From Monocercomonoides exilis PA203 (Eukaryota; Protista; Preaxostyla), in assembly GCA_001643675.2 (NCBI GenBank), contig LSRY02000003.1, forward strand, positions 248,001-312,000: 64,000 nt of DNA, read 5' to 3'. The notes beneath the pieces were generated by a model. It was not told the origin of the DNA. It saw only the letters and a program-made list of their open reading frames with translations, and did not search any database. Position numbers and translations under genes: made by a program. Each line of letters opens with the position of its first letter. The stretch's first letter is position 1. Shown here piece after piece: positions 8,620-64,000 of this stretch.

Positions 8620-10506
<1,887 letters not shown>

Positions 10507-29004: not shown

Positions 29005-29049
<45 letters not shown>

Positions 29050-29950: not shown

Positions 29951-29990
<40 letters not shown>

Positions 29991-36080: not shown

Positions 36081-37445
36081 TCAACACGCTTTTTCGTGTA
36101 TATCTCCAGTTGATTGAGAGGGATCTTCCGCTATTGCTTCTTTGCTTGACTCGCTTTTCTCTTTGTTTTCTTCTCTTTTTTCAGAGCTGATAGCATCTTC
36201 GTCTGTTTTCAATGCTTCTTCAGAAATATCTTTTGCTTTCTCCTTTCTGGCTCTTCTCAGCCTGCGGTGCTGCCTCCTTTCCTTCTTTTCGTTTTCAAAG
36301 CTGCTTTCCGCTGAATCGTCAGATTCCTCTCCTTTCTCTAATCTCGCTTTTCTCTTTTCTGCCCTTTCTTTTCTCCGCTGTTCTCTTTGCTTTTCTTTCT
36401 CCTCTTTCCTCTTCTTCCTTCTTTCCTCCTTCTCCTTTTTCTCCTCCATCGCCATCCTCTCAAACACCCCACCAAACATCTTTTTTTCCTTCTCATTTTG
36501 GATCCTAATAAGCGCGTTCGTGTATTCAATCTCTCTCAGAATCGACTTATCATCAGGCGCCAGCAACTTCGCTGCTTCGAAATCTGCTTTCGCTCCATCG
36601 AGATCGCAGCAGCCACGCTTAGCCATGCCTCTTCGAAAATGCGCCTTGGCACTGTTGCCATCAATCTTAACGGCATTGTTTGCTTCTCTAAGCGCCTTTT
36701 GAGGTAAAGGAGGAGAAACCTTCAAATAGCACAACGACATGTTTAGATGATACGCAAGTTTTAGTGGAAGAATCTGTTCCCTGATAGAATTTTTTGCCTT
36801 GAAGGCCGTCCACACATATGTCAATCCTAATTTATAGATTTCTGTTGCTTTGTCCCATTTTCCTTCTTTCACAAATTTTGCTCCTTCCTCTTTCAATTCT
36901 GTTGCTTTTGCAATTTGATCCAAAGTATGCTTTGGTTTTAAAATACAAGAAAGCAATTCTATTGTAAATATCAACGTTGAATCGCCAGGAATTTTTGGTG
37001 GTTTCCCTTCTTTTCCATACGCTAAGAGAGATGATACTTTGAATTCTGAAATTTCTCCAACTTTCATTGTTGCAACTCCAATGTCCCAACCTTTAATAAC
37101 ATCACCTTCACCGAGTCGAAATTTAAACGGAGAATTTATGTCCTGATTTTCATCAAACACTGTTCCATCTTCAAGTTTTCCCGTGAATAAAACCTTCAAG
37201 TTGGAATGTTTTTGGGGGGAAATACCTGTTCCCTCTTTGATAATGCGCTTCACAAGTTTTCCAGAAAGAAGGGGCAATATGTCATACGTTCCATCATCCA
37301 ACAAATGAGGTTCTGGATCCTTATACTCGTCATTTGATTCAGAAGATTCATCGTTTGTATCAAAAATTGTTGTCATAGTAGCAGTAGTTTCATCTGCATC
37401 GTAATCAGTTGCAGTTGACGGAGATTCATATTCATCCTCGCTCAT
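36081..37445 (-). CDS. FKBP-type peptidyl-prolyl isomerase with TPR repeats (FKBP51/52-like)
   Basis: FTGKLEDGTVFD, FRLGEGDVIKGWDIGVATMKVGE, AYGKEGKPPKIPGDSTLIFTIELL, then three TPRs (LKEEG, LNMSLCYLK, KAHFRRG) and EKKMFGGVF. Confidence 0.92.
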   Translation of the reverse strand: MSEDEYESPSTATDYDADETTATMTTIFDTNDESSESNDEYKDPEPHLLDDGTYDILPLLSGKLVKRIIKEGTGISPQKHSNLKVLFTGKLEDGTVFDENQDINSPFKFRLGEGDVIKGWDIGVATMKVGEISEFKVSSLLAYGKEGKPPKIPGDSTLIFTIELLSCILKPKHTLDQIAKATELKEEGAKFVKEGKWDKATEIYKLGLTYVWTAFKAKNSIREQILPLKLAYHLNMSLCYLKVSPPLPQKALREANNAVKIDGNSAKAHFRRGMAKRGCCDLDGAKADFEAAKLLAPDDKSILREIEYTNALIRIQNEKEKKMFGGVFERMAMEEKKEKEERRKKRKEEKEKQREQRRKERAEKRKARLEKGEESDDSAESSFENEKKERRQHRRLRRARKEKAKDISEEALKTDEDAISSEKREENKEKSESSKEAIAEDPSQSTGDIHEKAC

Positions 37446-37778
37446 TAAAATGAAATAATATTTATGAAAATATTACGATAGAGATCAAATTATTTTTATA
37501 ATTCAATTTTTTTTTCTCATCATTATTTTTTTGTATTAGTTGATTATAATGAAAATGTTCGGTCGTAATTTTGACAGAATCTTCAAATAATTAAAAAAAA
37601 AAACGAAATTGATTTTTGAAATAACAAAAGAAAAGAAAATTTTCAATAATTCCAATTTCTTCTTGTTTTTTCACAATATTCATCAAATATAACAATATTT
37701 TAATAGCTTATCTTAAAATTGCTTTATTTATAATTTATAAATATTTTTGTTCTCAAAATTATTATAAGATATGATCAG

Positions 37779-42298: not shown

Positions 42299-44669
42299 TT
42301 TATGTATTTATTTGCCTGTTCAATTGTTCACGAAGCTTTTGAGGACTTCATTTTGGGATATATTTTTTGACAATTTGATACAGAACTTTATTTTGCTATT
42401 TTGAAAAGAATTTTTGTTTATTTTTTGAAAGCTTATGGATTCCTGTTTAAACAAGAATGTTGTGAAGATTTTTCATCTATTTTTGGTAAATTCAAGAAAA
42501 TCTAATGATTCCCAATTCAAATTCTCTTTTTCTCAAAAATTGAGGAAAACAATTTTTGTAATGTGTTGATTTTTGAATAGTTCGTTCGATATTTCTTGAA
42601 AAATTTAGAAGTGAAACGAAATACATCAGAATATTTCAAGAAGATTTTGTAATTTGAGATTGTTGGTGCTTTTAGCCTTCAAACTGTTTGGCAACTGAAT
42701 GAAAATTCAACAAGCTCAAAAAACAGCGTCTGTTTCTGATTTTTCATGTTTCTCTTTATGCAGATAATATTGAATGTTTTCGTTATGAAATTGAAAAAAA
42801 CCACACTTATCAAAATGACCTTCTCATCTTTCTTGTTCAAAGTTTTTCTTTTTCATTTGCTTTTCTTTCTTTCCTTCTTTCTACTGACAGCTTCCCTCTG
42901 ACTTCATCAACATGCATCAATTGCCTCTGTCTTTTGAACTTTGTCATCTCATTCGCTTCTCCAATCTTCTGCTTCTTTTTCAGCCCCATTTCTTCTTTCT
43001 TCATTTGCAACTCTTTTTATTTTGCTTCCATTTTTGTTGCCAATATTCCTTCATCATCATCATCATTTCCTCCTCATATACGCCTCTTTTTGAGATCTCC
43101 TCTTTCTTCATCATCCACTGCGATTCTTCTTTGTTCTTCATTCTGTTCATCTTCACCTTCCACAGCTCTTCATTCTTCTCCTTCTGTTTCTGCTTTGTGA
43201 TTCATTCTCTTTCATCTCTTTTGTCTGTTTGATCTTCTCTCTCTCTTTCTCTCTTTCTTTAATGTGCCTCTGCTAAGAGATCTTCATTCCGATCTCTCTG
43301 CCTCTTTCTTCCTTTCCTTCGATAACTTTCACATTGACTTCCATCACACATGCTTTTCTCGCTTTTCGGTTGTTCGTTCATTCTTGTGATTATAATGGCA
43401 ATATCCTCTTTGAAATATTTCTTATTCATCATCATCTTCTTCTTCCCTTTTCTCTCTTCCTCTGCTCATCCTTTTTAGTTTTTGTTTCCTTTTCTTTTCG
43501 CTGAAATTTCCTCCCTGTGCTTTGCTTCTGGCTCAACTGCTTCCTCCTTCTCCAAAAAAAAAATAATTTCATTGAAGATTTTCTTCAATTCCACTGCTCA
43601 TCACAAGTCAACTTTCTTTTTGATTGTTTTGTGTTTTGTCGGTTGGTATGCTTCTGCTTTCTCCTTCATCAACCCATCTTTCATTTTCTTTTTCACTTTT
43701 CTGGCTTTTCTTCTTCAAAACCATCTAATCTTTCACTCTTTCAATATTTTGGATTAAAAAATAATAATCACTTCAAAAAAAAAAAAATAACGACAGCAAA
43801 CCTTCTAATCATTTTTATAAGCAATTTTCTGTTTTTTTATCCCATTGGCAACTGCTTTCTTCAATTCAATTTCATTATTCCTTCCTTTTTCGAATGTTCC
43901 ATCATCTGATTCTCCAATCATCCTTTCCAGAAGTCATTTCTCCATCAAATGCATCGATTTTATGCTCTTCTGAAAAATGTGAAATTCATGTTTTCTGCTC
44001 AAATTCCATTCTCATCATTGAAAAATATCATTGTTTTTCGTCTGAAAATATCATCTCCAATTCCCTTCCCAATCCCTTCACCCTGGGCACTTTCCATATG
44101 AATTCGCTGGCTCAACTCCATAGTCAGCCTGCACAATGAGATATAAAGCTTTCATTCATTTTCATTCATTTCCGCCTCCTGCCCTGAAAACAATGCAAAA
44201 ATAAATTTCATTCAAAGACAAATAAATATAAACTCAAACAATCTTTCTGCTCCCTTTCGGTCTTTTCGGTGAATTCAGCGAAGCATTTTTATTCAAAAAC
44301 ACTTTCTTAATTCTCCAAAATTATCATGTCTGCTTTACCTAAATCATAAAAACATTTTCAAAAAATGAAAAAGAAAAAAAAAAATAAATTCTCTTTTCAA
44401 GGGAAATCAAATCAAACATTTATCACATTTCCATTGAACAGCAAGAACAATACATGCGCAGAAAAAAAATAGTCAAAAAAAAATATAAATTACATTTAAA
44501 AAATGAAATCGTATTATGAAACAAACATTAAATATGCAATCTTTAAGTAAATAAAATGCCTTTGTCATCATTCGAGATTTCATAAAAATCTGTGAATAGA
44601 AAAAATTCTTTTAAGAATAATTTGATTGATCGCAGGAATAATTAATATTTTCATTTTTGATATGTTTGG

Positions 44670-47600
44670 ATGTCGTTTATCTTGTGGAATATGAAAGGAA
44701 ATTCGACAGCAATATTTTTATTGGCAATAACGTTGTGTATGCTTACCAGAAGCGAAGTAGTTGAAAATACTATCCCCAATGGGCAAGCGGAGAACGTTGG
44801 AAATGCAAGATTCAATCATATCACATGTGCTGAGACAAGTCTAAAAATCATCAACACCTCCTTGTGTGTGACCCATCTCACCATGGCACCTCTCGCTGGT
44901 TGTCCACTCCTCACTGCCCAACACCACTCGGCTGCAACCATCTGCTCCTCCACTTGCCAAGTCAACCCAGCAACAAAATCTCCACTTTTCCTCTCTGCCC
45001 ATGCCTCTATCATCCTCTCAAACTTCTCCCTCACCACCCACCAACCTGCCATCCTCTCCTTCCCCCTCTTCTCCACCCCAAACAATCTCTTCCCAGACGC
45101 CCACTCCCCAATCCCTGCCTCCTTCTCCATCTCCCACTCCTCTTTCTCCTCCTTCATCTCCCTCGTCCAGCCCTTCCTTTTTTCTCCTTCTTCCCTCTCT
45201 TCCCCTTCCCCTTCTCCATCTCCATCCCTTTTTCCTTCTCCTTCATCTTCCTCATCCTCACCCACATCATCTTCTTTTTCTTCCCCTTCCTCTTCTCCTT
45301 CTCCTCTCCATAACCATCACCAATCCCATCCCCACCTCCAAATCCACCTCAATCTCCATCTCTCAAACACCATCTTCTCCAACATCTCCTCTCCTCAATC
45401 CCCTCTATCGCTTCCATTCCTTCCTTCACACTCACTCAACCCATTCATCTCAACCACCTCTTCCTCTTCTTCCTCTTCCACTTCCACCAACACCAATTCA
45501 ATCCCCTCCTTCTCTCTTCACTCATCTCTCTCCATCCACTCAACCATCTTTCTCCGAACTCGCAACCCCATCGATGGTGCCATCCTCCCCAACCTCAACA
45601 GCCCATTCACTTCTCTTTCTGCCTTCAACACTTCCTTTCTCCACCAAACACGCTCTTTACCAAATGCTGCTGTGGTTCATATTGGAACAGAATCTCAAAG
45701 AAAAACACCTGGAAGGTTGACTTCTTTTGATGCTAACAGCCATATCTTCAAATGGTGTGAATGGAATGAATCAAATGGAGGAAGTGATTGGGGTGGTGCA
45801 CTTAAAGTTGTTTGCACAAATGCAAATCTCACAATCACTTCTTGTTCGTTTTTCAATTGTTCTTGCACAGGAAATGGTGAAGGAGGAGCAATATTCTGTC
45901 GATACTTATTGAAAATCAGCATCACAAAATCTAATTTCACAAACTGTTCTGCATTTGGTGGAGGAGCAGCCGCAATATGGCATCCACAATCAAATGCTGT
46001 TTATTCATTCTCAGAAAATAGAGTTGATAGTTGTAAAATAAAAGGCAATTATGGAACTGGTTGGTATTTTGGTCTCGATAACATGCCATCTGATGCAAAA
46101 TTCTTATTCAAAAATTGCTCCTGCATTGCAAATACTGGTGGAAATGCGGCCGGTGCAGTCACGTTTCATTACCCTCCACCACAAAAACCAAAACAATGCT
46201 TGCTCCAAGAGTGCCAGTTCATCAACAACAAAGTCGAAAATCCAACTTCCTATGGAGGCGCTGCTCTATGTTGCACAAACACCTTCACTTGGATGAATGG
46301 AAATAAATTCATCACATTCTGCTTCTTCGATGGCAACACTGCCACAAATGGCAGAGGAAATGATGTGTTCTTTTACGGAAGTGATATTACCCAATCCCCA
46401 TTCCAGCAATGTGGATCAACAACAGAATCAAAAAGAGTGTATAATAATGGAAAAGCTGATAGTGATGTGTACAACAGTTGGCTTCCAATCATCAACCAGA
46501 ACAAAATAGTCTCAAATGGTGGAAGTGATGTCGATGCCTGTGGCAAAACACAGCAAAGCCCATGCGCCACTGTGGAGTATGCCCTCGGATGCGTTGCTCC
46601 CTTCAGCGATGCCTCCCTCTCTCTTCTCGTCTCCACTTTCACTCCCACAAAGACTCTCACATTTCGTGCTCCAAATACAAAAATCACTGGAAACGGCACA
46701 ACTGCCACCACCATCGCCTCCAGTGGCATTCCCCAACCACAAAACTCATATTCACAGTCATCACAATCAGCATCATCATTTTCTTCATTTCCTTCTTCAA
46801 CATCTTCTTCACCAGATCCATCTGCCACTTCTGCCCTCTTCCAACAAACTCAGGGCTCCCTCACAGTCTCTGCCCTCGCCATCGCCCACAACTCCTCAAA
46901 TCCCATCACCCCCATCCTCTTCCACCTCTCCCAAAACTCCCCTTCCCTCAACCTCAACGCAACCACCATCACCGGAACAACCTCCAATTCAATCACAACC
47001 CCCCTCTTCTTCCTCACTGCTGGCTCCCTCGCCCTCAACCACACAGCAATCACTCATCTCACTCTCAACAGCCAGAGCATCTTCCACCTCACCTCCTTCA
47101 CCGCTCCCCTCACCCTCAACTCCTCCAACATCACCCACATCACCTCCACAGCCACCCCCGCCAGCTGTGTCCTCTCCTCTGCCACCTCCCCTGCCCTCTC
47201 CCTCTCCCTCGCCAACTGCACCATCACCAACATCAACTCAGCTCCACAACACCAACAGACTGCCACAGATGGCGGGTGCATCTCATTCGCCTCATCTGTC
47301 CCTGCCAATACGTTTTCAGTGAGTGATTCCACCTTCTTTAGCTGCTGCGTGAGTGAGGATGTGAATAATGGAGGAAAAGGAGGAGGAATATATTTGGATT
47401 GCAGTCTGAATGAAGGAGGATTTCAACTTTCATCGATATCGTTTTCTGGATGCTCAGCAACAGTTGGGAAGAACATGTTTGTGAAGAGCAACAATCTTGT
47501 GGACACTATGAATACAGAGCGTTTTGCATTTGATTGCTCAGGATATTCTAATGATGGGAATGCATTTGTTGGAGAAGATGGGGGGTATGGAGAAATGGAT

Positions 47601-50600
47601 CTTCGAGTGTTTCTTGTTTCTTTGAAGTGGATGGTTGTGTCTGTATCGACTGGTGGTCATGACACATTGGGATGTGGAAATGAAAAATTCCCATGTGAAT
47701 CAATGAAGAGTGGAATTGACCATATTGACAGAAGTGGGACAGTTGGAGAAAGGAAAGTGAAAGTGAAAGATGAAGTGACAATTGAAGATATTTATTCCTT
47801 CACAGATGAACTTGTGATTGATGGATGTGTGAATGAGGGAGATGCCATTAAACACAAGCCTATTCGTTTTGAATCTTCAATCAAAGAGAATTCTGCATCA
47901 TTATCATCATCTGTTATTTCATCAATTCAGCCACTCAGCTTCTTTTATTTGAAGCTGCAGATTCCAAGTCAATTTGTACCAAGTATGAATTCGTTGATCT
48001 CATCGAGTGGGGTTCTTGAGCTCGTAAACTGTTTATTTGAGATCCAATCAATAGCAGATATTGTTCAATACTCATTGATAACAACAACCACTGGAAGTTG
48101 CACATTGAAAGGATGCAGTTTGACAGATTGTTCATTTGCTGTATCTCCATTGGTGATGGCTTCTTCCGTTTTGTTAGAAAACAGTAACTTTTCAAACATT
48201 GCGAACGTAGGCAGTGAAGAAGGAGGTATTGCAAGAGTGACATTAAAAAATGACGAAGATTTGGTGATCAAATCAACAAATGCATCATCTTGCTCACTTT
48301 CATCAAGCAATGGAAAAGGCGGATTCTTGTATTTGGATTGTGAGAATTGTTTGAGTGAAAAACCATTTGTTTTTGATATTGGTGTCACTTTTGAAAATAA
48401 CAATGCAGCCACAGGGAGGAATATGTTCATTTTGGCAAATGATTTAAATACTTCTGTGACAAATGATTCATTCAAATTTGATTATTTGTCAATGATAAAT
48501 GAAAGCAATTTGTTTGTTGGAAGTGATGATTTTCATTCAAACAAAGATTTGTTCATGTTCCTCATTCCATACAGCTCCATTGAGATATTTATCTCATCTG
48601 AAGGATATGATGTTGTAAGATGCGGAAGTGAGAAAGAGCCATGTTTCACAATGTGGAAAGGGATGGAAAACATGAAAAAGGAAATTGGAAATAAAACAAT
48701 TCAGATTGAAGGATCGACAATTATTCGAGATTCATACAATGTGTCCAATTATCAGATCAAAAAGAGTGTAAAGATGGGAGAAGAAGATATAAAAGCGATA
48801 TTGAGTTTTGAAAAGGCAATTGGAAGTCAACTGGAATATTTCATGGAAAATGATGAACATCTTGAATTATCAAATATCCAACTTCAACTGACATCTGGAT
48901 TTGACAATTCAGCCAAAACAATTATTTCAAACAAAAATGGAGAATTGGTAATAAGTGGATGTTCATTCCATTCAGAGGCTGGAGTGAACAATGGATTTGA
49001 TTGTGTGTTTGTGGATGCGATTGGAGGAAGTGTAGAAGTGAATGATTTGTCGATTGAATCATGCAATGTTGGAAACAGTATTTTTTCAATTAACAATGCT
49101 GGAGTTTCTTGCCAGTTGAAGAATGTTCGAGTGAAATTGTTGAATGAAAGCGGAGGATGTCTTCTTCTGATCAAAGGATCTGAATTAACAACAAAGATAA
49201 ATGAAGTGGGTGAGGAAGTGAGTCTCAATATTGATAATTCATCATTTTCAGGAGTGAAGAGAAGTGACAATGGAGCAAGCGTTTTGGAATCGAAGAGTGA
49301 CAAAAAGATTTGTTTGATTGTAAAGGAGAGCAACATCACAGAAGATAAGGCAGAAGATAGTGAAAAAGGAGGGGCGATATTCTTCACATTGGGATCGTCT
49401 GGATCAATGAATATGATTGACTCCAAAATCACAAATTGCAATTGCAGTATTAGTTCAGGGAAAGGAGGAGGAGTATATTTGACAACAGATGAAAGAGGAG
49501 AATTGAATTTTTCATTTGCGGGTATGAAACTCAGTTCAAACACAGCAAGAGTGGGGAATGACATTTTCATTGAATGCTTCAACATCACATGGCAGATCAA
49601 TGAAAGGCAATTCCAGTTTGATCTTCGAGAAGGCCACTATTCACGAATTAATGCGATATATGGAATTGATGAATGTGAATATCCAAGCTTGACAGATCTA
49701 ATTGGATTTGTGACGATTCATCAGAGCGACACAATCATTGTGAGCAGTGTGAATGGATCGGATGATAGGCAATGTGGAACAAATGCTCTTCCATGTGATT
49801 CAATTGATTATGGACTTGTTCATTTGGCATCAGATATTCTGAGTCTGATATTTGTTGTTGAAAAGAGTGTGATTGAAGAAGAGATAAACCTGAAGGAAAT
49901 GAGTTTGAGTTCGAAGAACAGAGACTTGTGTGAAGTTGAAGTGAAATCAAACATTGGAACAACAAGAGAAGCGCTGGTGATAACAACTGGAACAGTCTCA
50001 TTGTTGAGAGTGAACTTTGTGTTTGATCCAAATTTCGTTTCTCAACATGAATCATTAATATCACCAGAGGGAGGAATTCTTGAGATAATGAATTGCTTAT
50101 TCACTTCAAAACAATCCAATGAAGAAGAAAATGAAGCTTTTGCAAACATTCCATTTCACACAATAAAAATGGTAAAAGGAGAATTACAACTCGATGGATG
50201 CACAATATCAAATCTTATTCTTCATGAATCTGCTTTGCATCTTTCATCACCATTTCCATTGGTGATTGATTCATTAACGATTTGCAATTCAACAATAGAA
50301 ACTTCTCTGATAGATATAAATGAATGTGGACAATTAACAATCAAGGATTTCAAAACGGAAAATATCTCAGTTGAAGGAAATGAAGAATCATTGATATCTT
50401 GCTTGGCAATGAAAAAGACAATTCAATTGGCAAATTGCACAATGGGTGGAGTCAGTTCAAAGACCACAAAAGGCAAATTGATGAAATTGGAGAATTGTTT
50501 GGACGTGAAAATGGACAGTTGCATTTTTGATGGGAGTTCAAAGGAAAGAAATGAAAAGAATTCAAATACAGAAGGAGAGATGTGCAGATGGGAAGGATCT

Positions 50601-52301
50601 CTTGTTGATATTGTGAAGAGTTCTGTGATGATGAAAGACACAACAATCTCGAATTCACCAGATGGTGGAATGACAATGAGTGGAGGAAATATCATGATTG
50701 AAAAAGGAGAGTTTTTGAATAATAATCCATCAATTGAAGGATATCCATCATTGAGAAGAAACATCCTCTGTTCAGATTCAGGAACATTGAATGTGATGAG
50801 TTTGAAAGGAGGAGATGGATGGAAGGATAACACATCATTGTGGATGTTGAATGAAGGGTGCAATTTTGAAGGGATTGTTTCAGAAAGGGATTCATCATTT
50901 TTCATTCCAGTTCTGGAGAGTGTGGAAGCAAAAGAAGAGACAGATAGAATGAAGCTGACATTCAAAGGGATGCTTCTTGTTCCATGCAACTTGTCATTCT
51001 CAGTTGTGAAGAAGAAGGGAGAAGGGAAAGAGATTGAACATTTTGATTTTGATTCAAATGGATTCTTGTCAGAAAGAGAAGTTGAAGGAAGTGCGACAAA
51101 GAATCTTATCAGCAATTGTGGAGATGAAATTGAGGTGAGTGTGCATGTTTTATTTGGGAATGCAGAATCTCCTTCTTCAACAAATTCATTCATTCTGAAA
51201 AATGCAAGTATTACTCCTCCAAAAGTTGATGAAAGAAAAACAGAAGGAGGAAATAAGAATAACAATGGAAATGTGAATATGATTGAATGGAGTTTGTTTG
51301 CCTTTATTGGCTGTGTTGCAGTTATTATTATTCTGTTGTTTGTTATTGTTGTGGTTGTTGTGCTTTTGCGAAGGAAATTGAGGGAAGCAGAAAAGAAAGC
51401 AGAGGAAGCAGAATCAGAAGCAAGACAAATAATGGAAAAGATTGAGAGAAGAAGGGAAAACAATGGGGGATGTATTGAGATGAGCGAGATGCCATCCACA
51501 CTGCTGGAAGGGATGACAAGCCAAATTCCACTTCTCATTGACAACGATGAAGAAGATCTTCCAGAGCCTCCGTCAATGACTGATGGAGAGCTGAATGAAA
51601 ATGATTTTCCAGATTTGGAACCACCATTGCTATTTTCTGAGGACGATTCTGCTGCTGGAGCACCAAAATCTCATTCACTCAATGTGATATCAGCGAAGAA
51701 ACCATTTCGAGAGAAAGAGAAAAAGAACATCAAAACATTACACTCAGTGATTCATTCAGTTCAGGGCAATTTCACACTGGGAACAAGAGCGATGGATGTT
51801 GTTGATGGAAAAGAGGTGGTTTTGGCAGTGGCAGAGCTATTTGAGCATTTGATTTCAGTTGATGATGAAAGGGTGGAAATGATGGCGAGGCAGCTGTGCC
51901 CATATACAATCTTTGTTGAGGAAGGGAGCAATGAAATATTTGTTTTGACAGAGGAATTGGAGGAAGAGAAGCAGAAGGAAGAAATGAAACGATGGAAGGC
52001 ACCAGAAATTGGAAATGAAGATGAGGAAGTGGAAAATGATGGAATTGAGCAAGCAGTTGTATTCACACTTGGACTGATACTCCATGAAATGACAACAGGA
52101 GAAGTGCCATTGAGTGAATGTGAAGCCGAGGAAGCACAGGAGATGATGAGGGATGGAGTGCGACCACTGACAGACGGAATCGAAGGAGAAGAAATGGTTG
52201 AGCTGATAGAGAGGATGTGGGGAGATGAGCCAGATATCAGACCCACTTTGGGAGAAGTGATTCAATCGCTGATGGAAATGGCAGAGAATGACGCAGAGTG
52301 A
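44670..52301 (+). CDS. Giant single-pass surface protein with degenerate kinase-like tail (paralog of 1850-7969)
   Basis: 2543-aa ORF with signal peptide, GGA(I/L) repeats, four G-x-D-x3-CG-x4-PC modules, TM WSLFAFIGCVAVIIILLFVIVVVVVLL, and RWKAPE / VFTLGLILHEMTTGEVP / RPTL. Confidence 0.88.
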   Translation: MSFILWNMKGNSTAIFLLAITLCMLTRSEVVENTIPNGQAENVGNARFNHITCAETSLKIINTSLCVTHLTMAPLAGCPLLTAQHHSAATICSSTCQVNPATKSPLFLSAHASIILSNFSLTTHQPAILSFPLFSTPNNLFPDAHSPIPASFSISHSSFSSFISLVQPFLFSPSSLSSPSPSPSPSLFPSPSSSSSSPTSSSFSSPSSSPSPLHNHHQSHPHLQIHLNLHLSNTIFSNISSPQSPLSLPFLPSHSLNPFISTTSSSSSSSTSTNTNSIPSFSLHSSLSIHSTIFLRTRNPIDGAILPNLNSPFTSLSAFNTSFLHQTRSLPNAAVVHIGTESQRKTPGRLTSFDANSHIFKWCEWNESNGGSDWGGALKVVCTNANLTITSCSFFNCSCTGNGEGGAIFCRYLLKISITKSNFTNCSAFGGGAAAIWHPQSNAVYSFSENRVDSCKIKGNYGTGWYFGLDNMPSDAKFLFKNCSCIANTGGNAAGAVTFHYPPPQKPKQCLLQECQFINNKVENPTSYGGAALCCTNTFTWMNGNKFITFCFFDGNTATNGRGNDVFFYGSDITQSPFQQCGSTTESKRVYNNGKADSDVYNSWLPIINQNKIVSNGGSDVDACGKTQQSPCATVEYALGCVAPFSDASLSLLVSTFTPTKTLTFRAPNTKITGNGTTATTIASSGIPQPQNSYSQSSQSASSFSSFPSSTSSSPDPSATSALFQQTQGSLTVSALAIAHNSSNPITPILFHLSQNSPSLNLNATTITGTTSNSITTPLFFLTAGSLALNHTAITHLTLNSQSIFHLTSFTAPLTLNSSNITHITSTATPASCVLSSATSPALSLSLANCTITNINSAPQHQQTATDGGCISFASSVPANTFSVSDSTFFSCCVSEDVNNGGKGGGIYLDCSLNEGGFQLSSISFSGCSATVGKNMFVKSNNLVDTMNTERFAFDCSGYSNDGNAFVGEDGGYGEMDLRVFLVSLKWMVVSVSTGGHDTLGCGNEKFPCESMKSGIDHIDRSGTVGERKVKVKDEVTIEDIYSFTDELVIDGCVNEGDAIKHKPIRFESSIKENSASLSSSVISSIQPLSFFYLKLQIPSQFVPSMNSLISSSGVLELVNCLFEIQSIADIVQYSLITTTTGSCTLKGCSLTDCSFAVSPLVMASSVLLENSNFSNIANVGSEEGGIARVTLKNDEDLVIKSTNASSCSLSSSNGKGGFLYLDCENCLSEKPFVFDIGVTFENNNAATGRNMFILANDLNTSVTNDSFKFDYLSMINESNLFVGSDDFHSNKDLFMFLIPYSSIEIFISSEGYDVVRCGSEKEPCFTMWKGMENMKKEIGNKTIQIEGSTIIRDSYNVSNYQIKKSVKMGEEDIKAILSFEKAIGSQLEYFMENDEHLELSNIQLQLTSGFDNSAKTIISNKNGELVISGCSFHSEAGVNNGFDCVFVDAIGGSVEVNDLSIESCNVGNSIFSINNAGVSCQLKNVRVKLLNESGGCLLLIKGSELTTKINEVGEEVSLNIDNSSFSGVKRSDNGASVLESKSDKKICLIVKESNITEDKAEDSEKGGAIFFTLGSSGSMNMIDSKITNCNCSISSGKGGGVYLTTDERGELNFSFAGMKLSSNTARVGNDIFIECFNITWQINERQFQFDLREGHYSRINAIYGIDECEYPSLTDLIGFVTIHQSDTIIVSSVNGSDDRQCGTNALPCDSIDYGLVHLASDILSLIFVVEKSVIEEEINLKEMSLSSKNRDLCEVEVKSNIGTTREALVITTGTVSLLRVNFVFDPNFVSQHESLISPEGGILEIMNCLFTSKQSNEEENEAFANIPFHTIKMVKGELQLDGCTISNLILHESALHLSSPFPLVIDSLTICNSTIETSLIDINECGQLTIKDFKTENISVEGNEESLISCLAMKKTIQLANCTMGGVSSKTTKGKLMKLENCLDVKMDSCIFDGSSKERNEKNSNTEGEMCRWEGSLVDIVKSSVMMKDTTISNSPDGGMTMSGGNIMIEKGEFLNNNPSIEGYPSLRRNILCSDSGTLNVMSLKGGDGWKDNTSLWMLNEGCNFEGIVSERDSSFFIPVLESVEAKEETDRMKLTFKGMLLVPCNLSFSVVKKKGEGKEIEHFDFDSNGFLSEREVEGSATKNLISNCGDEIEVSVHVLFGNAESPSSTNSFILKNASITPPKVDERKTEGGNKNNNGNVNMIEWSLFAFIGCVAVIIILLFVIVVVVVLLRRKLREAEKKAEEAESEARQIMEKIERRRENNGGCIEMSEMPSTLLEGMTSQIPLLIDNDEEDLPEPPSMTDGELNENDFPDLEPPLLFSEDDSAAGAPKSHSLNVISAKKPFREKEKKNIKTLHSVIHSVQGNFTLGTRAMDVVDGKEVVLAVAELFEHLISVDDERVEMMARQLCPYTIFVEEGSNEIFVLTEELEEEKQKEEMKRWKAPEIGNEDEEVENDGIEQAVVFTLGLILHEMTTGEVPLSECEAEEAQEMMRDGVRPLTDGIEGEEMVELIERMWGDEPDIRPTLGEVIQSLMEMAENDAE

Positions 52302-53217: not shown

Positions 53218-54653
53218 AGGAAATCTACTGCGGGTCAGCTGAAGCTGCTGGAGGCGATGCTATCATTCAAATATCTGTAATTTTGGAATCCACTGGAGCG
53301 AATAGCACACATATAAAACGATGGAGCTGTGCGTATGGTGGATGCATACAACAGCAAAAAATTCAGCAAAATTCGAATCAAGCGTGCGGTGAAGGCTGTT
53401 CGGCAAGGCAGACTGGTTTCGAAAATTGGAAGACCTACTGTGGTCATTGGCGAAAAAGAGCATACAGTGATGTACGAAACAACAATAGAATCACTCTCTG
53501 GAGCTAGCCTAACCATCAAGAAAATGCGTGAACTGGTTTGCATAAATATTCTTTGAAATGAATCAATTAATATTAATTAGATTGAAAACGTTGTTAGTGA
53601 TTTGAAACCAGAAAACAAGCCAGATGTCGAAGTTTCTGCTTCCGTTTCCTACGACTTTTTCAAAAGACATCCCGAGCTGAAGACTTCAATGCCGAAAATT
53701 GTTGATGCAATTAGACTTGCCGTATCATTCTTACAAGTTCAAAAGCCTAGATCTGAAATAATCGATGGATTACACCAGAAATGTTATGACAACAAAGTCC
53801 TCATCTTCAACGTGGACAAGACATCGCTCAGGGTTCCCGACAGCTCCAATCGGAATGTCGTTCATCCGGCTAATACAAAACCCGGTTTCGCTAAATCTGC
53901 GGTGCGAATGGCGAATTCCACACTGATTGCGGAGGTCGCAGCTGATGGACAATCACTTCCTCCATTTGTTCTGTTGCCGAGTCTCAAACTTCCTAATGAC
54001 CTGAAGCCTCTTCAGTCTTTAAATCTTGAGATTTGGCCGAACAAATGCGGATGGATTGAATCTTCAACGTTTAGGAATGATGCACTCACAATTCTTCTCA
54101 CTTCAATCAAAGAAAGAAGGCAACGCATGTCACTCGACGAATCGCAATGCTTGCTTCTCATCGACTCACACATTTCTCGAGCAGATCCAACAATCTGGCG
54201 AGAGTTCAAAAAAGAAAATGTGGATGTTGTGACATTCGTCCATCACAGCACACACATCTCCCAGCCACTTGACCAAGGCACATTTGCAGTTCTGAAGCCT
54301 GAGATGAGCTCACAGGTTGAAGTGCCTTATCCTCGCCTTCAACTTCGAAGAGAACTGCTCTTATTGAAGCTCTCCAACAATCAATTCATTCGGCGCTATC
54401 ACCTTCTGTCATTAATAGAGCATTCAAATGCAGCGGCGTGCTGAAAGACTCGCCTGGGCCAGTTCTGATGAAGCTTCCACTTTCATCGAGTTATTATCTT
54501 CCTTCACATAAAAATCGATTTGACTTCCACGGTAAAGAAATAACAGAAGAAAAGGCGCTAAATGAGTGGGATGATTATTTGAAAAAGAAAAGTGAAATGG
54601 AAAATGAAAAAGAAAACATTTCTGATGAAAAAAATGATGAAACAACAAATTAA
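53218..54653 (+). pseudogene. pogo/Fot1-like (DDE_1) transposase pseudogene, DD35D
   Basis: IFNVDKT, AADGQSLPP, LLLIDSHISR and HSTHISQPLDQGTF, with 35 residues between the 2nd and 3rd Asp. In-frame stops at the 5' end and a frameshift near 54330. Confidence 0.85.
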
Positions 54654-54828
54654 ACAAAAAAGTTGTAAAGAAAGTTCAAAATACTTCAAGATGAGAACGA
54701 TATTGAGATAAAAATCATCTGATGAAATTGAAAGTGGAAGGGGAAAAAGAAAAATCATTCGCAAAAACAATTCGAGCTTTGAATTTTTTTAAAATTTTTT
54801 TATTTCGAAAAATTTGGAAACAAATAAA

Positions 54829-56069
54829 AGAGATATGGTATATCAGCCATAGATCCATCTCGATTAGGCCAATCAATATTATCGATTTATGAATATCTGG
54901 TGGTTGTTATCATCTTGCATAATAAGTTGGAATAGGCAATGATAATAAGATAGAGATCGATGATTATTGCTGATACTCTTAGGGGTTTATCATGATTAGA
55001 TATTCAGTGATGTTCTATAAAGATGAAGTCGTTGATAGGTGTAATCGAGATATATCCATAGCGGGTATACCATATCTCCAGGAAGGAGATTAGCTAAAAG
55101 ATTAACTGAAAGACAAGCTGGAAGTGTTCAAGTTGGTAAATTAGTGGTGAAATTTGATGAAATCGTTGATGAAATACACGTGTTGAACATGTGTTGAATG
55201 TGTTGATGTTACCGTTGGTGAAATCATCGGTGTTATCGTTTGCGAAATCGTAAATAAAAATTATTGATTTTGTTTTTTGTTTTATAGCAAATGGGTTTGA
55301 AGAAGATTTACGCAACTGTGGAAGAAGCGAAAGCGGCTCAACAGAAACAAATTAAACAGTTTCAGGAAAAACGTAAAGAAGAAACTAAGTATTTCAACGA
55401 ACATGTATCTGAAAAACAGAAGTTGATAAAGATATTGAGGAGAAAGCTTATCGAAAGTGATGAGTTGTTAGATGAGTTGATGGAAAAAGTTAATGGATAT
55501 TTGCCTGCACAGGGTGGACAGGTTAAGCTGGTCAGGTTTTGGAGGTAATGCTGTGGCTGGGAAATATTGAGTTAAATCTCCGAGCTTTTCACCTGCACTG
55601 GGTGCACCGGGTGCACTGAATCAATTATATTCTCCAAAATATATGGGCAAACGGTCAAACTGAACAAATTGTGCATAATACAATTTATGTTAAAATTGAT
55701 GAAATATAACATACTACACACGTTTTTTGTACCGTTGATTGTATCAAACAGTGTCCACGGTGGCGTTGTGGTGGATTGCCAATATCTATATTTTTGCTTG
55801 GAAAAAGTGTCAACCCGTAAACTGGATACCGAATTGTGGAAATATCGAGAAGCTGGGGGAATGGAAATATTGGCTGAAATCTCCGAGCTGGAAGCGTGTC
55901 CTGGTGTCCTGGTGGAACGGTTCTTTTAATTTCATCTGAAAAAAGCTGCCAACATGCCATTTCTACCAATATGAGCATTTTACCCCTAATTTGGTATGAT
56001 TTTGAGGGTTTTTATTTATTTTTGACTGTATCATCATTTTTCCACATTGCCACATGGTATCGTTGATGG
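54829..56069 (+). repeat. Left terminal inverted repeat (1241 bp)
   Basis: Starts AGAGATATGGTATATCAGCC and ends CATGGTATCGTTGATGG. Confidence 0.95.
55291..55548 (+). CDS. Small basic coiled-coil protein encoded in the left TIR
   Basis: 85-aa ORF MGLKKIYATVEEAKAAQQKQIKQFQEKRKEE with an AT-rich leader and helical, charged composition. Confidence 0.55.
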   Translation: MGLKKIYATVEEAKAAQQKQIKQFQEKRKEETKYFNEHVSEKQKLIKILRRKLIESDELLDELMEKVNGYLPAQGGQVKLVRFWR

Positions 56070-56409
56070 CACACATCAGTTGTAATGTCAATTGTTAAGA
56101 ACAGATGTTTTGCCTGCACCGGGGACAAAATGGTGGATAATTTGGTGCTGTGGCTGGGAAATATTGAGTTAAATCTCGGTGCTGGAGGTGTGGACAGGTG
56201 GACAGGACTGGACAGGATAAATTTCATTCTCTAAAATATGTGGGCAAACGGGCAAACTGAGCAAATTGGGAAAAATACATTTAATGTGAAAATTAACTGT
56301 TTTCCGTCAAAGTTCGACATAAACCTCAACATCATCTTACCTGTAAATTTTCGTTTCAAAAATAAATCTGTTACAAAAAAATTAGTTTTTTTTTTTAAAT
56401 TTTTTAAAA

Positions 56410-58779
56410 ATGACAAACCCCCAAGCAGACTCTGACAATGTAATCCAACAATTAATTGATTCAATTTCAACAGAACAGCAAACGCTGGGAGAACGAATGA
56501 AAGATCACCTTGTTGATTTGTTCGACTACAAGAAATACTCTGATAAGTAGCAGGACCGACGAAATACAGGAACAGCTGTTGATATCAGCAAATGTGAGGA
56601 TATTTGTGTCGTTGATGTTGATATTAACAAATCCCTTCAAGCTGAACAAACGAAAACCATCAGGAATTCCATTCTCAAGAAACTCCCCCGAAATGTCGGA
56701 CTTGTTCAAACAGTTAATGGTGGTCTTCATATTTATTGTGAGCTGTGTGGTAATCCCCTCAAATGTTCATCACAAACCAAAATGTTCATGAGTCCAGAGT
56801 ACGATATCGACATTTTTGCAGGTATTGGAGAGGGAAAACAGAGGCTTGTAGTTCAAGCTGACTCTTCATACAGAGAGATAAAAGATGGCAAGAGAATCAT
56901 CACCTAATACATTCCCCTCAACAATTACAGAGAGCTCAGAGATCTTTCATCACTCGAGAGTGTTCTTGACGTATTCGGTATTGACCTCAAAACAGAGAAT
57001 ACAACAGCAGTAATGGCAGCTGAACCACACAATCTTCTCACACAAGATGGTGTCGTTGATGTATCTCCAACCATCGCTCTTGCTCTTGTTGATGGATTCA
57101 AAGATGTTGAAATACATAACGACACAGGTTCTTTGTCACTTGATTCTGAGTTAACTCTTAAACCGTTATTTGCAGCTCTCAACTCACTCGTCAACATTAA
57201 CGGTTTCGACAACCAATCGATTGATTTTCTTTACAATCAAATCAGAGAGACAGCTGCTCTAACAGCAAATGCAATCACTCGCTTTGAAGAGAAACGAAAC
57301 AGGAACAGGGATCACAAGTCACATCCATTTGTTCGACAAAAGATTGTCAAGAGATGGAATCCAACATATTACAACGATGAGATCATTCCACTCCTCAGAA
57401 AAGAGAATGAGCAAAAGGAAGAACCTCCACGAGAAATTGCAGTTCATGAAACAGATCTCAACTCATCGTTCTCGTTCTCTGAAATCAGGGATAAAGCTTG
57501 TCGAAAACAAAACTTCTCACTGTCTGAAGTCGCTAAAGATTTCACAAATGTTCTGAGGTTTGTTGGAGCAAGGATGGAATTCATTGTGAAAGAGTTTGAC
57601 ATTCACACCTCTTATTATTCAATTACATTTAAGACATAATCAACAATGTTCGAATTGTTCAAAACTATGAAACTCTGGTATGATAATAAATAGACTCTCA
57701 CAGTTGAGACAGCTTTCGAACATTTCTCACATGTTCTTTCGATTGATGGGGTGAAGTTCTTCTCAGATAACCCTCGAATATTCTCTCTGTTCCATGGGTT
57801 CAAATATCAAATGGCAAACGAACAAAACAACGAAATCATCAAACCATTCCTCGATTTCACACGAGAAGTTATCGTCAACGACAACGATGAACTCTATCAA
57901 TACATCCTCTGTTGGATTTCGTCAATTATTCAAAATCCTGGAGAAAAAACAAAAACATCACTTGTTCTCAAAGGTTTGCAAGGTATTGGAAAGAATGTCT
58001 GGACAAATGAACTTGCTGAATTGTTGGCAGGATATTCATGTCCGAATGTCATAGAAATTGCAGAACTGACAGGACAGTTCAACTCCATCGTCGAAGTGAA
58101 AATGCTGATTGTACTCAACGAATTGAAGAATGTTGGAGATGATCGAACAGCTAACTTTGACGCATTGAAGAAAATAATCACTGATTCAACAATCAGAATC
58201 AATGAGAAGAATCAGCCAAGAAGAACAGCTGAGAATGTAGCTAATTTCATATTTGTGACAAATTACACGTACCCGGTAAAGATTGAGATTGGAGACAGAA
58301 GATATGTTGTTTGTGATTGAAACTCAAAATATAAGAACAATCTCACATTCTTCAAGGATTTCACAAGCTCTTTCGACAGTGAATTCTATGAACAACTTCT
58401 CCGTTATTTCCTTAGTAAAGATCTCTCCAATTTCAACACAAGAGCTATTCCAACGACGGAAGCAAAGGAAGATATCATTGCAGCATCACTCTCTGTCATC
58501 TATGTGTTTTGTCAGGAGCATTACAACAAACTCAAAGAAGGGTGGAGATGTTCTGATGCATTTTGTTTCAGACCAGTTGAATACAAGAACGATCGCTCAT
58601 TCCAACTGGCAATTGAAGACAGATGTGAGAGAACACGAGTAGGCGGAAGAGGAAATCAAGTGTGGTGTTATAAACTCAAGCCAGAGTATGAGCAACTCCT
58701 CAATCGACGTGAAGATGAAGATGACATTGATTGTTCTGTAAAAATTATCTATACACATTCGTTTATTTGGAATCATTAA
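56410..58779 (+). pseudogene. AEP (Prim-Pol-like) primase-polymerase fused to D5-like SF3 helicase; single frame with 5 internal stops
   Basis: ICVVDVDIN (DxD), VQTVNGGLHIY, DIDIF; Walker A GLQGIGKN, Walker B LIVLNE, motif C FIFVTN, Arg finger GDRRY. Stops at 56548 TAG, 56905 TAA, 57637 TAA, 57691 TAG and 58318 TGA, with no frameshift. Confidence 0.85.
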
Positions 58780-58818
58780 TACACAAACGTTACAAAAGTG
58801 TGTGTCACTTGTTATATT

Positions 58819-60059
58819 CCATCAACGATACCATGTGGCAATGTGGAAAAATGATGATACAGTCAAAAATAAATAAAAACCCTCAAAATCATACCAAATT
58901 AGGGGTAAAATGCTCATATTGGTAGAAATGGCATGTTGGCAGCTTTTTTCAGATGAAATTAAAAGAACCGTTCCACCAGGACACCAGGACACGCTTCCAG
59001 CTCGGAGATTTCAGCCAATATTTCCATTCCCCCAGCTTCTCGATATTTCCACAATTCGGTATCCAGTTTACGGGTTGACACTTTTTCCAAGCAAAAATAT
59101 AGATATTGGCAATCCACCACAACGCCACCGTGGACACTGTTTGATACAATCAACGGTACAAAAAACGTGTGTAGTATGTTATATTTCATCAATTTTAACA
59201 TAAATTGTATTATGCACAATTTGTTCAGTTTGACCGTTTGCCCATATATTTTGGAGAATATAATTGATTCAGTGCACCCGGTGCACCCAGTGCAGGTGAA
59301 AAGCTCGGAGATTTAACTCAATATTTCCCAGCCACAGCATTACCTCCAAAACCTGACCAGCTTAACCTGTCCACCCTGTGCAGGCAAATATCCATTAACT
59401 TTTTCCATCAACTCATCTAACAACTCATCACTTTCGATAAGCTTTCTCCTCAATATCTTTATCAACTTCTGTTTTTCAGATACATGTTCGTTGAAATACT
59501 TAGTTTCTTCTTTACGTTTTTCCTGAAACTGTTTAATTTGTTTCTGTTGAGCCGCTTTCGCTTCTTCCACAGTTGCGTAAATCTTCTTCAAACCCATTTG
59601 CTATAAAACAAAAAACAAAATCAATAATTTTTATTTACGATTTCGCAAACGATAACACCGATGATTTCACCAACGGTAACATCAACACATTCAACACATG
59701 TTCAACACGTGTATTTCATCAACGATTTCATCAAATTTCACCACTAATTTACCAACTTGAACACTTCCAGCTTGTCTTTCAGTTAATCTTTTAGCTAATC
59801 TCCTTCCTGGAGATATGGTATACCCGCTATGGATATATCTCGATTACACCTATCAACGACTTCATCTTTATAGAACATCACTGAATATCTAATCATGATA
59901 AACCCCTAAGAGTATCAGCAATAATCATCGATCTCTATCTTATTATCATTGCCTATTCCAACTTATTATGCAAGATGATAACAACCACCAGATATTCATA
60001 AATCGATAATATTGATTGGCCTAATCGAGATGGATCTATGGCTGATATACCATATCTCT
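58819..60059 (-). repeat. Right terminal inverted repeat (1241 bp)
   Basis: Ends GGCTGATATACCATATCTCT; mirror image of 54829-56069. Confidence 0.95.
59340..59597 (-). CDS. Second copy of the TIR-encoded 85-aa protein
   Basis: Translation identical to 55291-55548. Confidence 0.55.
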   Translation of the reverse strand: MGLKKIYATVEEAKAAQQKQIKQFQEKRKEETKYFNEHVSEKQKLIKILRRKLIESDELLDELMEKVNGYLPAQGGQVKLVRFWR

Positions 60060-60375
60060 AATAAAAATAATATGTTTTTTTAAAAATATGACACTTATTT
60101 ATTAACTGCTATTGCGCAATTTTTTTTTATTTTTTAGATAATCACATTAAGAATAAAAATTAGGTTTAAATTACGAACGAAATTATGATTTCAAAAAGAA
60201 TCAAATGCACATGTGGGAGAAAATTTTTGAAAAATCACCACAGATCAAAAATAAGATACCATAACAATATTATTTTTTAATTTTCTCTTTCGTTAAAATG
60301 CTTTAAGTTCGTTTTTTCAATGAGTGAAATTTTATTAGAACATATCATAATAATGTTTGGGCATAGGTGTATTTA

Positions 60376-60682
60376 AGGTACATTCCCAATCCTTGGTTAT
60401 TTCATAAATGGTTGTGATAAATAAAAAGTAGATTTATTAATGAAACATTTGTATGGACTGGAATTTTGAAATTCTTTTTAATCCTTGAGAAAAATCTATT
60501 TTTAAAAATCACCCATAAATCTGAGTAATGATTTAAATTATTTATAAAAATAAAGAAATTTGAATTAAAAAGCAGCTGAACGGACATTCATTATAATATA
60601 CTCTTATTTTATTTGTGATTTTTCAAAAAGCAAAAACATTAAAAAAATAAATTGAAAAATAAAAATAATTTGATCTATCCCA
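60376..60682. repeat. Left arm of an inverted repeat of at least 307 bp (partner 63694-64000)
   Basis: Identical mirrored ORFs 60402-60587 and 63789-63974; the match runs to the window edge. Confidence 0.9.
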
Positions 60683-61350
60683 CAATCAAAGTTTTATTTA
60701 TCAAAGATTTTGTTTTAGCTTCTTTTCTATATGTACCTTTTGAATGCAAACAAATCTTCTTGAACTTCATTAAAATATTTTAGAAAAGTGAGAAAGTTTA
60801 GTATTTAGTGAGGTTAATTTGAACTGCTTTCACAGTTTCTAAAAGTGTGAAAGCTGTTCATCTTGTTAATCCGAGTGGCATCTCTGTTTAAAAAAATACA
60901 TTTCATGAATGCATAATATTTGAAACAGTTATTATCTAAAGTGTTTAATTTAATAAGTTTAATTAATACATGAAATCTGTCTTATATTTTTTGAAGTTTT
61001 CTTGAAAACTCCAAAAGGACATTTTATTCTATTTCAACAATGCAAACACCTTTTCATATACATATTGTTTTTTTAATAAAATATAAAACAAACAAATGGA
61101 TTTGAAGAATAAATTTTTAAAAAAGAAAAATATTATTCTTGCACTCAATTCTTATAATGAAGTTGAACAACAAACTCCATGCAATTATTTCATTGTTTAT
61201 ATGTCAAGCACTTTCTTTCATTATGTTCTCCTTTGACATAAATGATTCAATTGCTGCAATACTTAAAAATTACTTCAAAATTTTTGTTTATTTATCCAAA
61301 AAAAAAAAAAAAACATGACAAATTATTCTTTTTTTATAATATATGTTTCA

Positions 61351-63289
61351 CTAACATTCTCTCCCTCTCTTTCTAATCTCCTCCTCTGCTCTTCTCTTTT
61401 GCTTTCTCCATCGAACGATTAGTGCTATTGACACAATAATAACAAATAACAAAATTACAACCAATAAAACAATAATGATCAAGACGAATGATGATTTTCT
61501 TTCTTTTCCACCTTCAGTTTTTCTTTCATCACCATTTGATTCTGGCTTTCTTCTGTTCTTCAGAATAAATGAATTAGTGGCTGATGGCGAATCAGCTTTT
61601 CCAAACAAAATGCACACTCTCACTTCTGCTTCACTTGGAACACATTCAATTGTTTTCACAGGAACAGACCCATGAACCTCTTCTTCTGATATGAAGTCTC
61701 TTTCATCAAACAAATGCTTCTCAATCACTTCCTCATCCCCAATCGCTGTAACTGTCTTGAATGAGAGGTTGCACGGAAGGAGAACCGATCCTCTGAACAC
61801 AACGTCCACCTTCTCCCCTGATTTTTCCGATGTCACACTCTCCACTTTCGGGATGAAAAACGCAGATGCCCTTTCTTTCGTTATTCCTTCCAGCGTGCAT
61901 CCTTCGTCCAATATCCACAGTGAGGTGTTTTTCTCCAATCCGTCCCCTCCCTTCAAACTAGTAACTTTCAATTTTGCTGAATCTCCACACAAAACATTCC
62001 ACCTCACTGATCCATAATTCGCTATTGATGGATTATTATTCTCAAATTTCCCATCAAATATCTCCACAATTCCTCCTGACAAAAAAAGCGCCCCTTTCTT
62101 CGAGTTGCTGATTATTTTGTCTTTCATCGCTACAGAACTATTCAAGAAGCTTGCAGCTGAACCATTCCATCTGTACATTTCATTTTTGACTTCATTAAAC
62201 GCCTTTTCGTACAGTCTTCTTTGTGCTTATTTTAAATCGCATTCATTTGCATTTCCATCCAAAAGGCATCTGTCCATCGTTTCGTTTGAACAGTTTCCCA
62301 ATGTGATATGCATTCATTTTGAATTGCTTTGAGCTGAATTTTTGATCAAGTAATTGCTTTTTTCATTGCGCTCCTCACACCCAAAAACGATAGTGAAGAA
62401 AGTAGCTTTTTGAGGTGGCGACATTCTCCAATTACAGATGATTCTCAGGGATTCCTCCACTTCCTGCAACATCAATGAGCGCATCACTGGTTTCCAAGTT
62501 GCAGAACACACAGAAGAAGCAACAAATGGATTGAGCGATGCAACGCATAAAGCAGCCACCGAAAGTGCAACATCTGCCAAGCAGCATCCATCCAGAACAC
62601 ATCTCTCCGAGGCTATCCGAATGATGTGAAACGGTATTTGTGCATGAAAACGAGTTTTAGCAGATACTGTGCGTTTTGAGCCGAACGAGCAGTTGACTGT
62701 TTCCACCAATCCGCTTCGTGATTCAACAGAATTATATGAGAAAATGCAAATTCCGCATCAAATACAAATTTCTCTCTTTAAATAGTCTCCATGCTGGATG
62801 TCGATATAAAACTTGCCCTTGAACATTCGATTCTCGACAACACTTCAACATTGCACATACCGCTGCTTCCAGAACCCAGGCTCATCTTATCCAGCTCCAC
62901 TTCCCACTTGATCTCACTCTCCACATCAACAAACATCTGGCTGATGAAACCAGAAGTCAAAGGCCTCATTCCTTAATCAATCGAATGAAATGGAAGAGCA
63001 TTTGTTCCATCCACACTGCTCACAACAATTGTGTAACTCTGATGGATAGTTTTAAATCCAATTAGACAGTGTCACTTGGATAATCACATTCATCAATTCC
63101 ATATATCGCATTAATTCGCGAATAATAATTCTCTCGAAGATCAAACTGAAATTTGCTTTCATTAATCTGAGATGCAATGCTGAAGTATTCGATGAAAATA
63201 TCATTCCCCACTTTCGCTGTGTTTGCACTGAACTTCATCCCCACAAATCTGAAATCCAAACTTCCTTTTTCCATTGTCGAAAAATGCAT
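61351..63289 (-). pseudogene. Truncated, frameshifted copy of the giant surface protein family
   Basis: Fragments FSANTAKVGNDIFIE...FDLRENYYSRINAIYGID and SLKGGDGLEKNTSLWILDEGC...PCNLSF...TM match both intact paralogs; N-terminus and kinase-like tail are absent. Confidence 0.85.
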
Positions 63290-63693
63290 AACTCCCCATC
63301 ATATTGCGCTAACGGAGTTGCATTAATAATTTTTCATTTGTACATAACATTCTACATAGTTTCAATAATTAATAATCTAACAAATATGCAATTTGTTAAT
63401 TTATTCAATAAATAAGATAATTTAGATTAAATTTATACATTTATGAGCGTTATCAGTGCTTCCATATTCGTTAACTTCATGAAGAAATGCGATTCTTATC
63501 AAACTGCAACAAAATATTCACAGAAACAATCATAATCAAATAACGTTGAGGATTGAAAGAAATGTTAATAATCATCCAGTGCATACTTTTTGTAATATTA
63601 GAATATTTGATTTGGCTTATATTCGTAAGCGGGTGTTCAATTCATGGAAAAAAAAAACAAATTCTTATTTTTAGGATATATATAATTTAATTA

Positions 63694-64000
63694 TGGGATA
63701 GATCAAATTATTTTTATTTTTCAATTTATTTTTTTAATGTTTTTGCTTTTTGAAAAATCACAAATAAAATAAGAGTATATTATAATGAATGTCCGTTCAG
63801 CTGCTTTTTAATTCAAATTTCTTTATTTTTATAAATAATTTAAATCATTACTCAGATTTATGGGTGATTTTTAAAAATAGATTTTTCTCAAGGATTAAAA
63901 AGAATTTCAAAATTCCAGTCCATACAAATGTTTCATTAATAAATCTACTTTTTATTTATCACAACCATTTATGAAATAACCAAGGATTGGGAATGTACCT
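63694..64000. repeat. Right arm of the inverted repeat (continues to or past the window end)
   Basis: Reverse complement of 60376-60682. Confidence 0.9.

Follow-up and report, generated by a model that had tools for sequence, protein, structure and literature searches.

The 64,000-nucleotide stretch of Monocercomonoides exilis DNA analysed here (the window) contains, at 54829-60059, a 5231-bp element that belongs to a real, apparently undescribed family of small elements, in which two long terminal inverted repeats (TIRs, or arms) enclose one core gene for a primase-polymerase (Prim-Pol) joined to a superfamily 3 (SF3) helicase. The reading that we favour, and to which we give about an even chance, is that these elements replicate by means of their own primase-polymerase-helicase and borrow an integrase from a larger Polinton-like virus (PLV). 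This reading builds on several direct observations: the anatomy of the element, its domain make-up, its copy number, a terminus common to many different flanks, and the decay of a gene that lies between identical arms. That the family constitutes a distinct class of one-enzyme Prim-Pol-SF3 satellite replicons of gut protists, with long arms and flip-flop hairpin ends, self-replicating, integrated and perhaps packaged by PLVs of Metamonada, we regard as rather unlikely. The open literature yielded no description of such an element (Repbase and subscription papers lay outside the search).

The arms (54829-56069 and 58819-60059), each 1241 bp long, show no mismatch when compared with one another. 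The termini, AGAGATATGG on the left and CCATATCTCT on the right, are of the AG...CT type, the left end opening with (AG)2, and the element is bordered on either side by AATAAA, a 6-bp target-site duplication (TSD) whose chance occurrence, given the composition of the flanks, has a probability of 0.002-0.003; TSD and AG ends are found together at this one locus. Between the arms lies a core of 2749 bp with a single long frame (56410-58779). The unit length, arm length, AG...CT ends and AATAAA TSD given in the original prediction were all re-measured and confirmed. The features of the element are as follows.

54823..54828, + strand: left TSD copy, AATAAA (chance 0.002-0.003)
54829..56069, + strand: left TIR, 1241 bp, beginning 5'-AG (0 mismatches against the right arm)
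54829..55079, no strand: imperfect terminal palindrome, 251 nt, predicted hairpin (self-complement score, DNA fold)
55291..55548, + strand: intact 85-aa open reading frame (ORF), one long predicted helix (ORF list, homolog MONOS_17995, structure model)
55549..56409, + strand: three diverged subterminal units of about 300 bp (starting at 55549, 55852 and 56146)
56410..58779, + strand: predicted Prim-Pol / SF3 helicase / winged-helix gene with 5 in-frame stops (ORF, Pfam, fold)
58819..60059, - strand: right TIR, 1241 bp, finishing CT-3' (0 mismatches against the left arm)
59340..59597, - strand: identical second copy of the 85-aa ORF (mirror of the left-arm ORF)
59809..60059, no strand: right terminal palindrome (mirror of 54829-55079)
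60060..60065, + strand: right TSD copy, AATAAA

As had been predicted, the ORF list for the 5231-bp unit and Pfam searches with the two element proteins revealed no integrase, protein-primed DNA polymerase (PolB), packaging ATPase or capsid ORF. There is neither an rve integrase gene nor room or an ORF for one, and a major capsid protein and packaging ATPase are absent, the only ORFs of the unit with homologs being the replicase and the 85-aa helix. Because each arm carries an intact 85-aa ORF, the claim that the element holds only a PrimPol-SF3 gene is correct for the core and incorrect for the whole element. This ORF, the units of about 300 bp, the terminal palindrome and the perfect arms around a decayed gene had previously gone unnoticed.

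The core frame consists of 789 codons and a stop, and contains in-frame stops at codons 47, 166, 410, 428 and 637 with no frameshift; in the window copy, the core gene is a pseudogene. (Residues 1-774 of the 789, with X at the stops, were used for searches and folding.) An alternative genetic code was rejected as the source of these stops: table 6 still leaves a TGA stop, the standard code leaves host frames 2053-4168 aa long open, and the break positions hold sense codons in other copies. The protein divides into a predicted Prim-Pol domain, an SF3 helicase and a winged helix (approximately residues 26-199, 460-690 and 695-770, respectively). Its helicase matches the NrS-1-like helicase family PF19263 in Pfam (E = 1.8e-18) and the NrS-1 helicase itself in sequence (E = 1e-26), and with these matches come the Walker A, Walker B and motif C that mark SF3. 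In the structure model (mean predicted local distance difference test score, 72), this part also matches the NrS-1 helicase in fold (Z = 17.3, root-mean-square deviation [rmsd] 3.7, 266 aligned). Sequence support for the Prim-Pol is weak (E = 0.4-0.8), and the Pfam search of the core protein returned no primase; in fold, residues 26-199 match the pRN1 Prim-Pol (1ro2; Z = 9.4, rmsd 3.5, 151 aligned), there is a further match to the NrS-1 Prim-Pol (Z = 8.3, rmsd 10.9, 211 aligned), and the fold is accompanied by DxD and GGxH motifs, which the window copy and most of 36 homologs possess along with Walker A. Residues 695-770 match many winged-helix proteins with Z of about 6, which chance matches often reach. 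Structure prediction and fold comparison uphold the Prim-Pol and SF3 assignments, and the core product is modelled as being of the NrS-1/pRN1 type, with a Prim-Pol, an SF3 helicase and a winged helix. The originally predicted Prim-Pol and SF3 make-up stands, with the correction that the gene of this copy is a pseudogene.

The element is a multi-copy family and not a one-off. Twenty-eight helicase gene models of the D5 type were collected from M. exilis, 27 of them placed, on 16 contigs distinguished by their lengths; allowing for model overlaps, they represent at least 22 loci, including the window copy. One model, MONOS_15182, matches 221 residues of the window copy at 100%, ten of those compared have 82-96% protein identity, and only one of the 28, whose protein is KAH7829568.1, seems complete and unbroken. 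In another copy, the D5 gene (KAH7819005.1) and an arm ORF (KAH7819006.1) bear consecutive accessions. Short-read contigs from four runs (X1-X4, all of one sample) contain arm-to-gene joints of other copies on both sides (55513>56146, 55609>56238 and 55515>58794), and unlike AT-rich flanks stop at 54828/54829 in at least 14, 12, 3 and 9 contigs of the respective runs; there is no empty-site joint among those listed. The number of loci and the many different flanks at the same terminus bear out the prediction of an element family. Candidate helpers also occur in the same genome, as had been proposed, in that six major-capsid genes are reported for the M. exilis assembly (Table S4, in the same column as Streblomastix; PMC10120064). 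With at least 22 D5 loci and only 6 capsid genes, there are too few detected capsid genes for most of the D5 loci to have one each. In the available text of the assembly paper, 35% of the genome is assigned to unclassified repeats and the word 'virus' is absent (PMC8767320).

The arms of the window copy are far more alike than the state of its gene would predict. Of 659 alignment columns, 49 are private to the window copy, stops counted, and its 5 stops compare with 3.4 expected under neutrality. At 1-3.3% decay, 25-82 mismatches are expected between the arms, versus the 0 observed; moreover, where the arms depart from the family majority (e.g., at 54869, 54918 and 55026), both carry the change. 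Perfect arms around a decayed gene imply that one arm was copied onto the other recently, after the decay, and because the window copy is unable to make the enzyme, equalisation occurred either through panhandle replication with the enzyme acting in trans or through gene conversion in place. The assembly paper cautions that polishing is uneven in multi-copy regions (PMC8767320); however, zero-difference short-read contigs of 338-440 letters cover the inner arm at about twice the depth of the gene region in three of the four runs (51 vs. 24-62 in X1, 206 vs. 79-138 in X2, and 13.7 vs. 2.9-7.7 in X4; X3 was not informative), and polishing is therefore not the cause of arm identity. Summed contig depth at the termini is 3-5 times that of the gene, where 2 is expected, but depth is not copy number, so this figure was not used.

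The 85-aa arm ORF is 88% identical to MONOS_17995 and is predicted to form one long helix. Its Pfam and PHROG matches are all sub-threshold, and its best Atlas score (0.85, to unnamed viral clusters) offers a lead only. Each subterminal unit of about 300 bp has a conserved 38-nt head and tandem motifs of 8-9 bp, features that suggest a candidate origin or iterons. According to short-read joints, other copies skip or repeat about 314 or 628 bp, having fewer or more of these units, and have a shorter arm. The 251-nt terminal palindrome has a self-complement score of 194, as compared to 79±13 (maximum 122) in 300 shuffles, and its DNA fold reaches -35.1 kcal/mol (z = -5.3); the motif GAGATATGGTATA has exact matches at 4 places, and Rfam returned 0 matches. 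There are weak signs of flipped isomers of this palindrome, from which two types of joint are expected: A joint of the outer-type end to inner sequence (54830>55092) is present in one contig in three of the four runs, with a side of only 34 letters, and three contigs of run X2 have an inner-type end at 55078 followed by T and unlike AT-rich DNA. The loose ends at 55078, which come from one run of the single sample, also fit solo mini-elements.

Proteins of the NrS-1/pRN1 type can alone prime, extend and unwind DNA, and the phage NrS-1 polymerase and pRN1 ORF904 provide the model for a replication step in which the winged helix would bind the subterminal units, an SF3 hexamer would unwind the duplex, and the Prim-Pol would prime and extend. 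Strand displacement would then free a strand whose arms might pair as a panhandle, allowing one arm to be copied from the other; such panhandle copying would explain why the arms are identical and why their inner boundary varies. By folding back, the terminal palindrome might serve to prime synthesis or to protect the end. Finally, an rve-type integrase supplied in trans would join the AG/CT ends and create the 6-bp TSD, as suggested by the agreement of these features with those of Mavericks, which in vertebrates are defined by a 6-bp TSD and AG-repeat ends, (AG)3 or (AGT)2 (PMC8097293).

Several considerations weigh against self-replication with a borrowed integrase. The end-to-end structure with its own TSD is known from the window copy alone, and the case for a helper and its integrase consists of those ends and that TSD. 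Selection in cis on the gene lacks support, given copies that are 82-96% identical and of which one in 28 looks unbroken, and a nickase for hairpin resolution is not encoded in the element. In-place conversion accounts for identical arms without replication. Moreover, some flank-bearing contigs continue into the arm for 165-200 letters with single depth, so the arms are not identical in every copy; elsewhere in the family, the arms appear to be unequal or only one arm appears to be present. Lastly, a D5 gene, perhaps of the M. exilis family, is reported inside Mavericks of Trichomonas vaginalis (PMC12289875).

A possible explanation for many of these features is that the element is a deletion derivative of a local D5-bearing PLV that has been amplified wholly by parental enzymes, with the primase-helicase as a passenger. 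We consider this somewhat unlikely; nevertheless, a passively amplified derivative fits nearly as well as the 'undescribed class' of the original prediction. It would account for the Maverick-type ends and TSD (PMC8097293) and for the fact that nearly every M. exilis copy is broken, and it has precedents in the D5 gene of some T. vaginalis class 3 Mavericks (PMC12289875), and in the AEP-SF3 modules common in PLVs (bioRxiv 10.64898/2026.06.19.733378); the six capsid loci of this genome (PMC10120064) count in its favour as well. Against it, the D5 loci outnumber those capsid genes, and the core has kept exactly the replication gene and little else. Eight of ten clusters of full-length homologs from other samples are also on contigs of 2.4-3.7 kb, hardly exceeding the gene in length, and one is on contigs of 10.7-11.6 kb, but this argument is weak because short contigs are usual.

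If the element were instead a composite transposon, formed by two inverted 251-bp mini-elements that were moved by a host DDE transposase and captured a viral fragment, the inverted ends within the terminal 251 bp, the three X2 contigs that finish at 55078 like solo elements, and the nearby DDE transposase genes would all be expected. We view this as improbable: Arm identity extends about 990 bp past the palindrome, the inner end is CC rather than CT, flipped isomers predict the same loose ends, and replication genes are unusual cargo. Very improbable is a one-off deletion that has only full-length Polintons as relatives, or an artefact of assembly or polishing, the cases that would have undone the original prediction. 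Although the uneven polishing of multi-copy regions (PMC8767320) lends it some support, it conflicts with the zero-difference contigs at about double depth, the perfect 6-bp TSD, the arm-to-gene joints of other copies, and the excess of D5 loci over capsid genes (PMC10120064).

The element falls outside the Polintons and PLVs, in that it has no integrase, PolB or capsid, and outside the transpovirons, in that its enzyme is another. It shares long TIRs, AG...CT ends and a 6-bp TSD with Polintons/Mavericks (including Trichomonas TvMav1-3, of which TvMav3 sporadically contains a D5-type gene; PMC12289875), but those are 10-28 kb as opposed to 5 kb, and the M. exilis element lacks their integrase, protein-primed PolB, ATPase and capsid and has a terminal palindrome. 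Like transpovirons, it is small (theirs being about 7 kb), capsid-less, flanked by TIRs and based on a helicase, and transpovirons too have integrated copies in a protist genome (PMC5499653). Their helicase, however, is of superfamily 1 and fused to an inactivated PolB, where the M. exilis element has a Prim-Pol-SF3 enzyme, and they have a free linear form carried by a giant virus, whereas the M. exilis element is described from an assembly and short-read contigs. Its mode of life is probably that of a transpoviron, combined with insertion of the Polinton type. The 'replicative end module' of PLVs (Barth et al., PMC11296320) likewise has a primase-helicase beside inverted repeats, a proposed origin, and repeat-flanked helicases were proposed there to be mobile; that module is part of a virus that encodes a capsid along with a tyrosine recombinase or nuclease, whereas the M. 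exilis element is free-standing, with its own ends and TSD. The phage NrS-1 polymerase and pRN1 ORF904 are likewise built of a Prim-Pol, an SF3 helicase and a winged helix, but belong to prokaryotic replicons and are about 18% identical to the M. exilis protein, whose gene is integrated in a eukaryote. Parvoviruses, including adeno-associated virus, have a terminal palindrome and an SF3 helicase like the element, which may also share their flipped isomers; it differs from them in its very long arms and integrase-type TSD and in the absence of an HUH nuclease and a capsid.

Replication modules are often swapped among PLVs; one proposal has a mobile primase-helicase carry them (PMC11296320), yet no free-standing example was found in the open literature searched. 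The M. exilis family makes this mobile-module model testable: its ends are defined, one natural copy of its gene looks unbroken, and its host is in culture and has been assembled from long reads. If the family is a distinct class of satellite replicons, it would represent, in free-standing form, the mobile 'end module' that was proposed to take the place of PLV replication genes; it would also give the endogenous viruses of metamonads a satellite. The family further suggests that D5-bearing Trichomonas Mavericks merit re-reading for nested inserts; a 'Poxvirus D5' gene is reported inside 8.6% of 1705 class 3 Mavericks of T. vaginalis (PMC12289875).

Relatives of the core protein occur in other organisms. 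The initial search returned 17 matches (five from M. exilis, Histomonas, a cluster of 198 T. vaginalis sequences with 41% identity, and 10 others), three later matches came from Streblomastix, and there are dozens of near-full-length relatives among the 150 best profile matches. In a quick tree, built without named PLV, virophage or transpoviron sequences, the M. exilis clade had no firm placement. Protein scans of a viral contig collection found no relative, with 0 matches there to the 18-nt terminal motif, and a scan of a genome contig collection likewise found none. Among the 55 of 64 parts of a metagenome contig collection that were scanned, 7 loci were recovered, of which L001-L003 were rejected as short fragments without inverted repeats and L006 and L007 as prokaryotic, distant helicase matches. 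The L001 fragment has an SF3 helicase ORF without the primase part and then a second ORF, with an AT-rich 73-bp repeat (89-161 and 1711-1782, 82% identical) upstream of both. Full-length homolog clusters P0051, P0059 and P0052 have similar contig sizes across separate assemblies (2539-2719, 2621-2637 and 10659-11647 bp, respectively), as if the gene sits between repeats.

Other repeats and genes surround the element. A frameshifted pogo/Tc5-like transposase (53581-54653, + strand; DDE_1, E = 1.8e-10), multi-copy in the short-read contigs, ends about 175 bp to its left, and a search for inverted ends of this gene found none; a Harbinger/PIF-type transposase ORF lies at 9358-10515 (- strand; DDE_Tnp_4, E = 4.8e-23). 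To the right, a second repeat occurs as an inverted pair (60376-60733 and 63643-64000, 94% across 358 nt), truncated where the window stops, on either side of a membrane-protein gene that has decayed (61351-62226). Two large ORFs (1850-8011, - strand; 44661-52301, + strand), paralogs inverted relative to each other, share DNA blocks of 70-90%, the latter having a kinase domain at its end, after a predicted membrane segment, and resembling the genome's expanded tyrosine-kinase family. The window also contains an open frame of 4168 codons, mostly Glu/Lys and Ser runs (18088-30594, + strand), and an FKBP-type isomerase with weak TPR matches (36081-37472, - strand).

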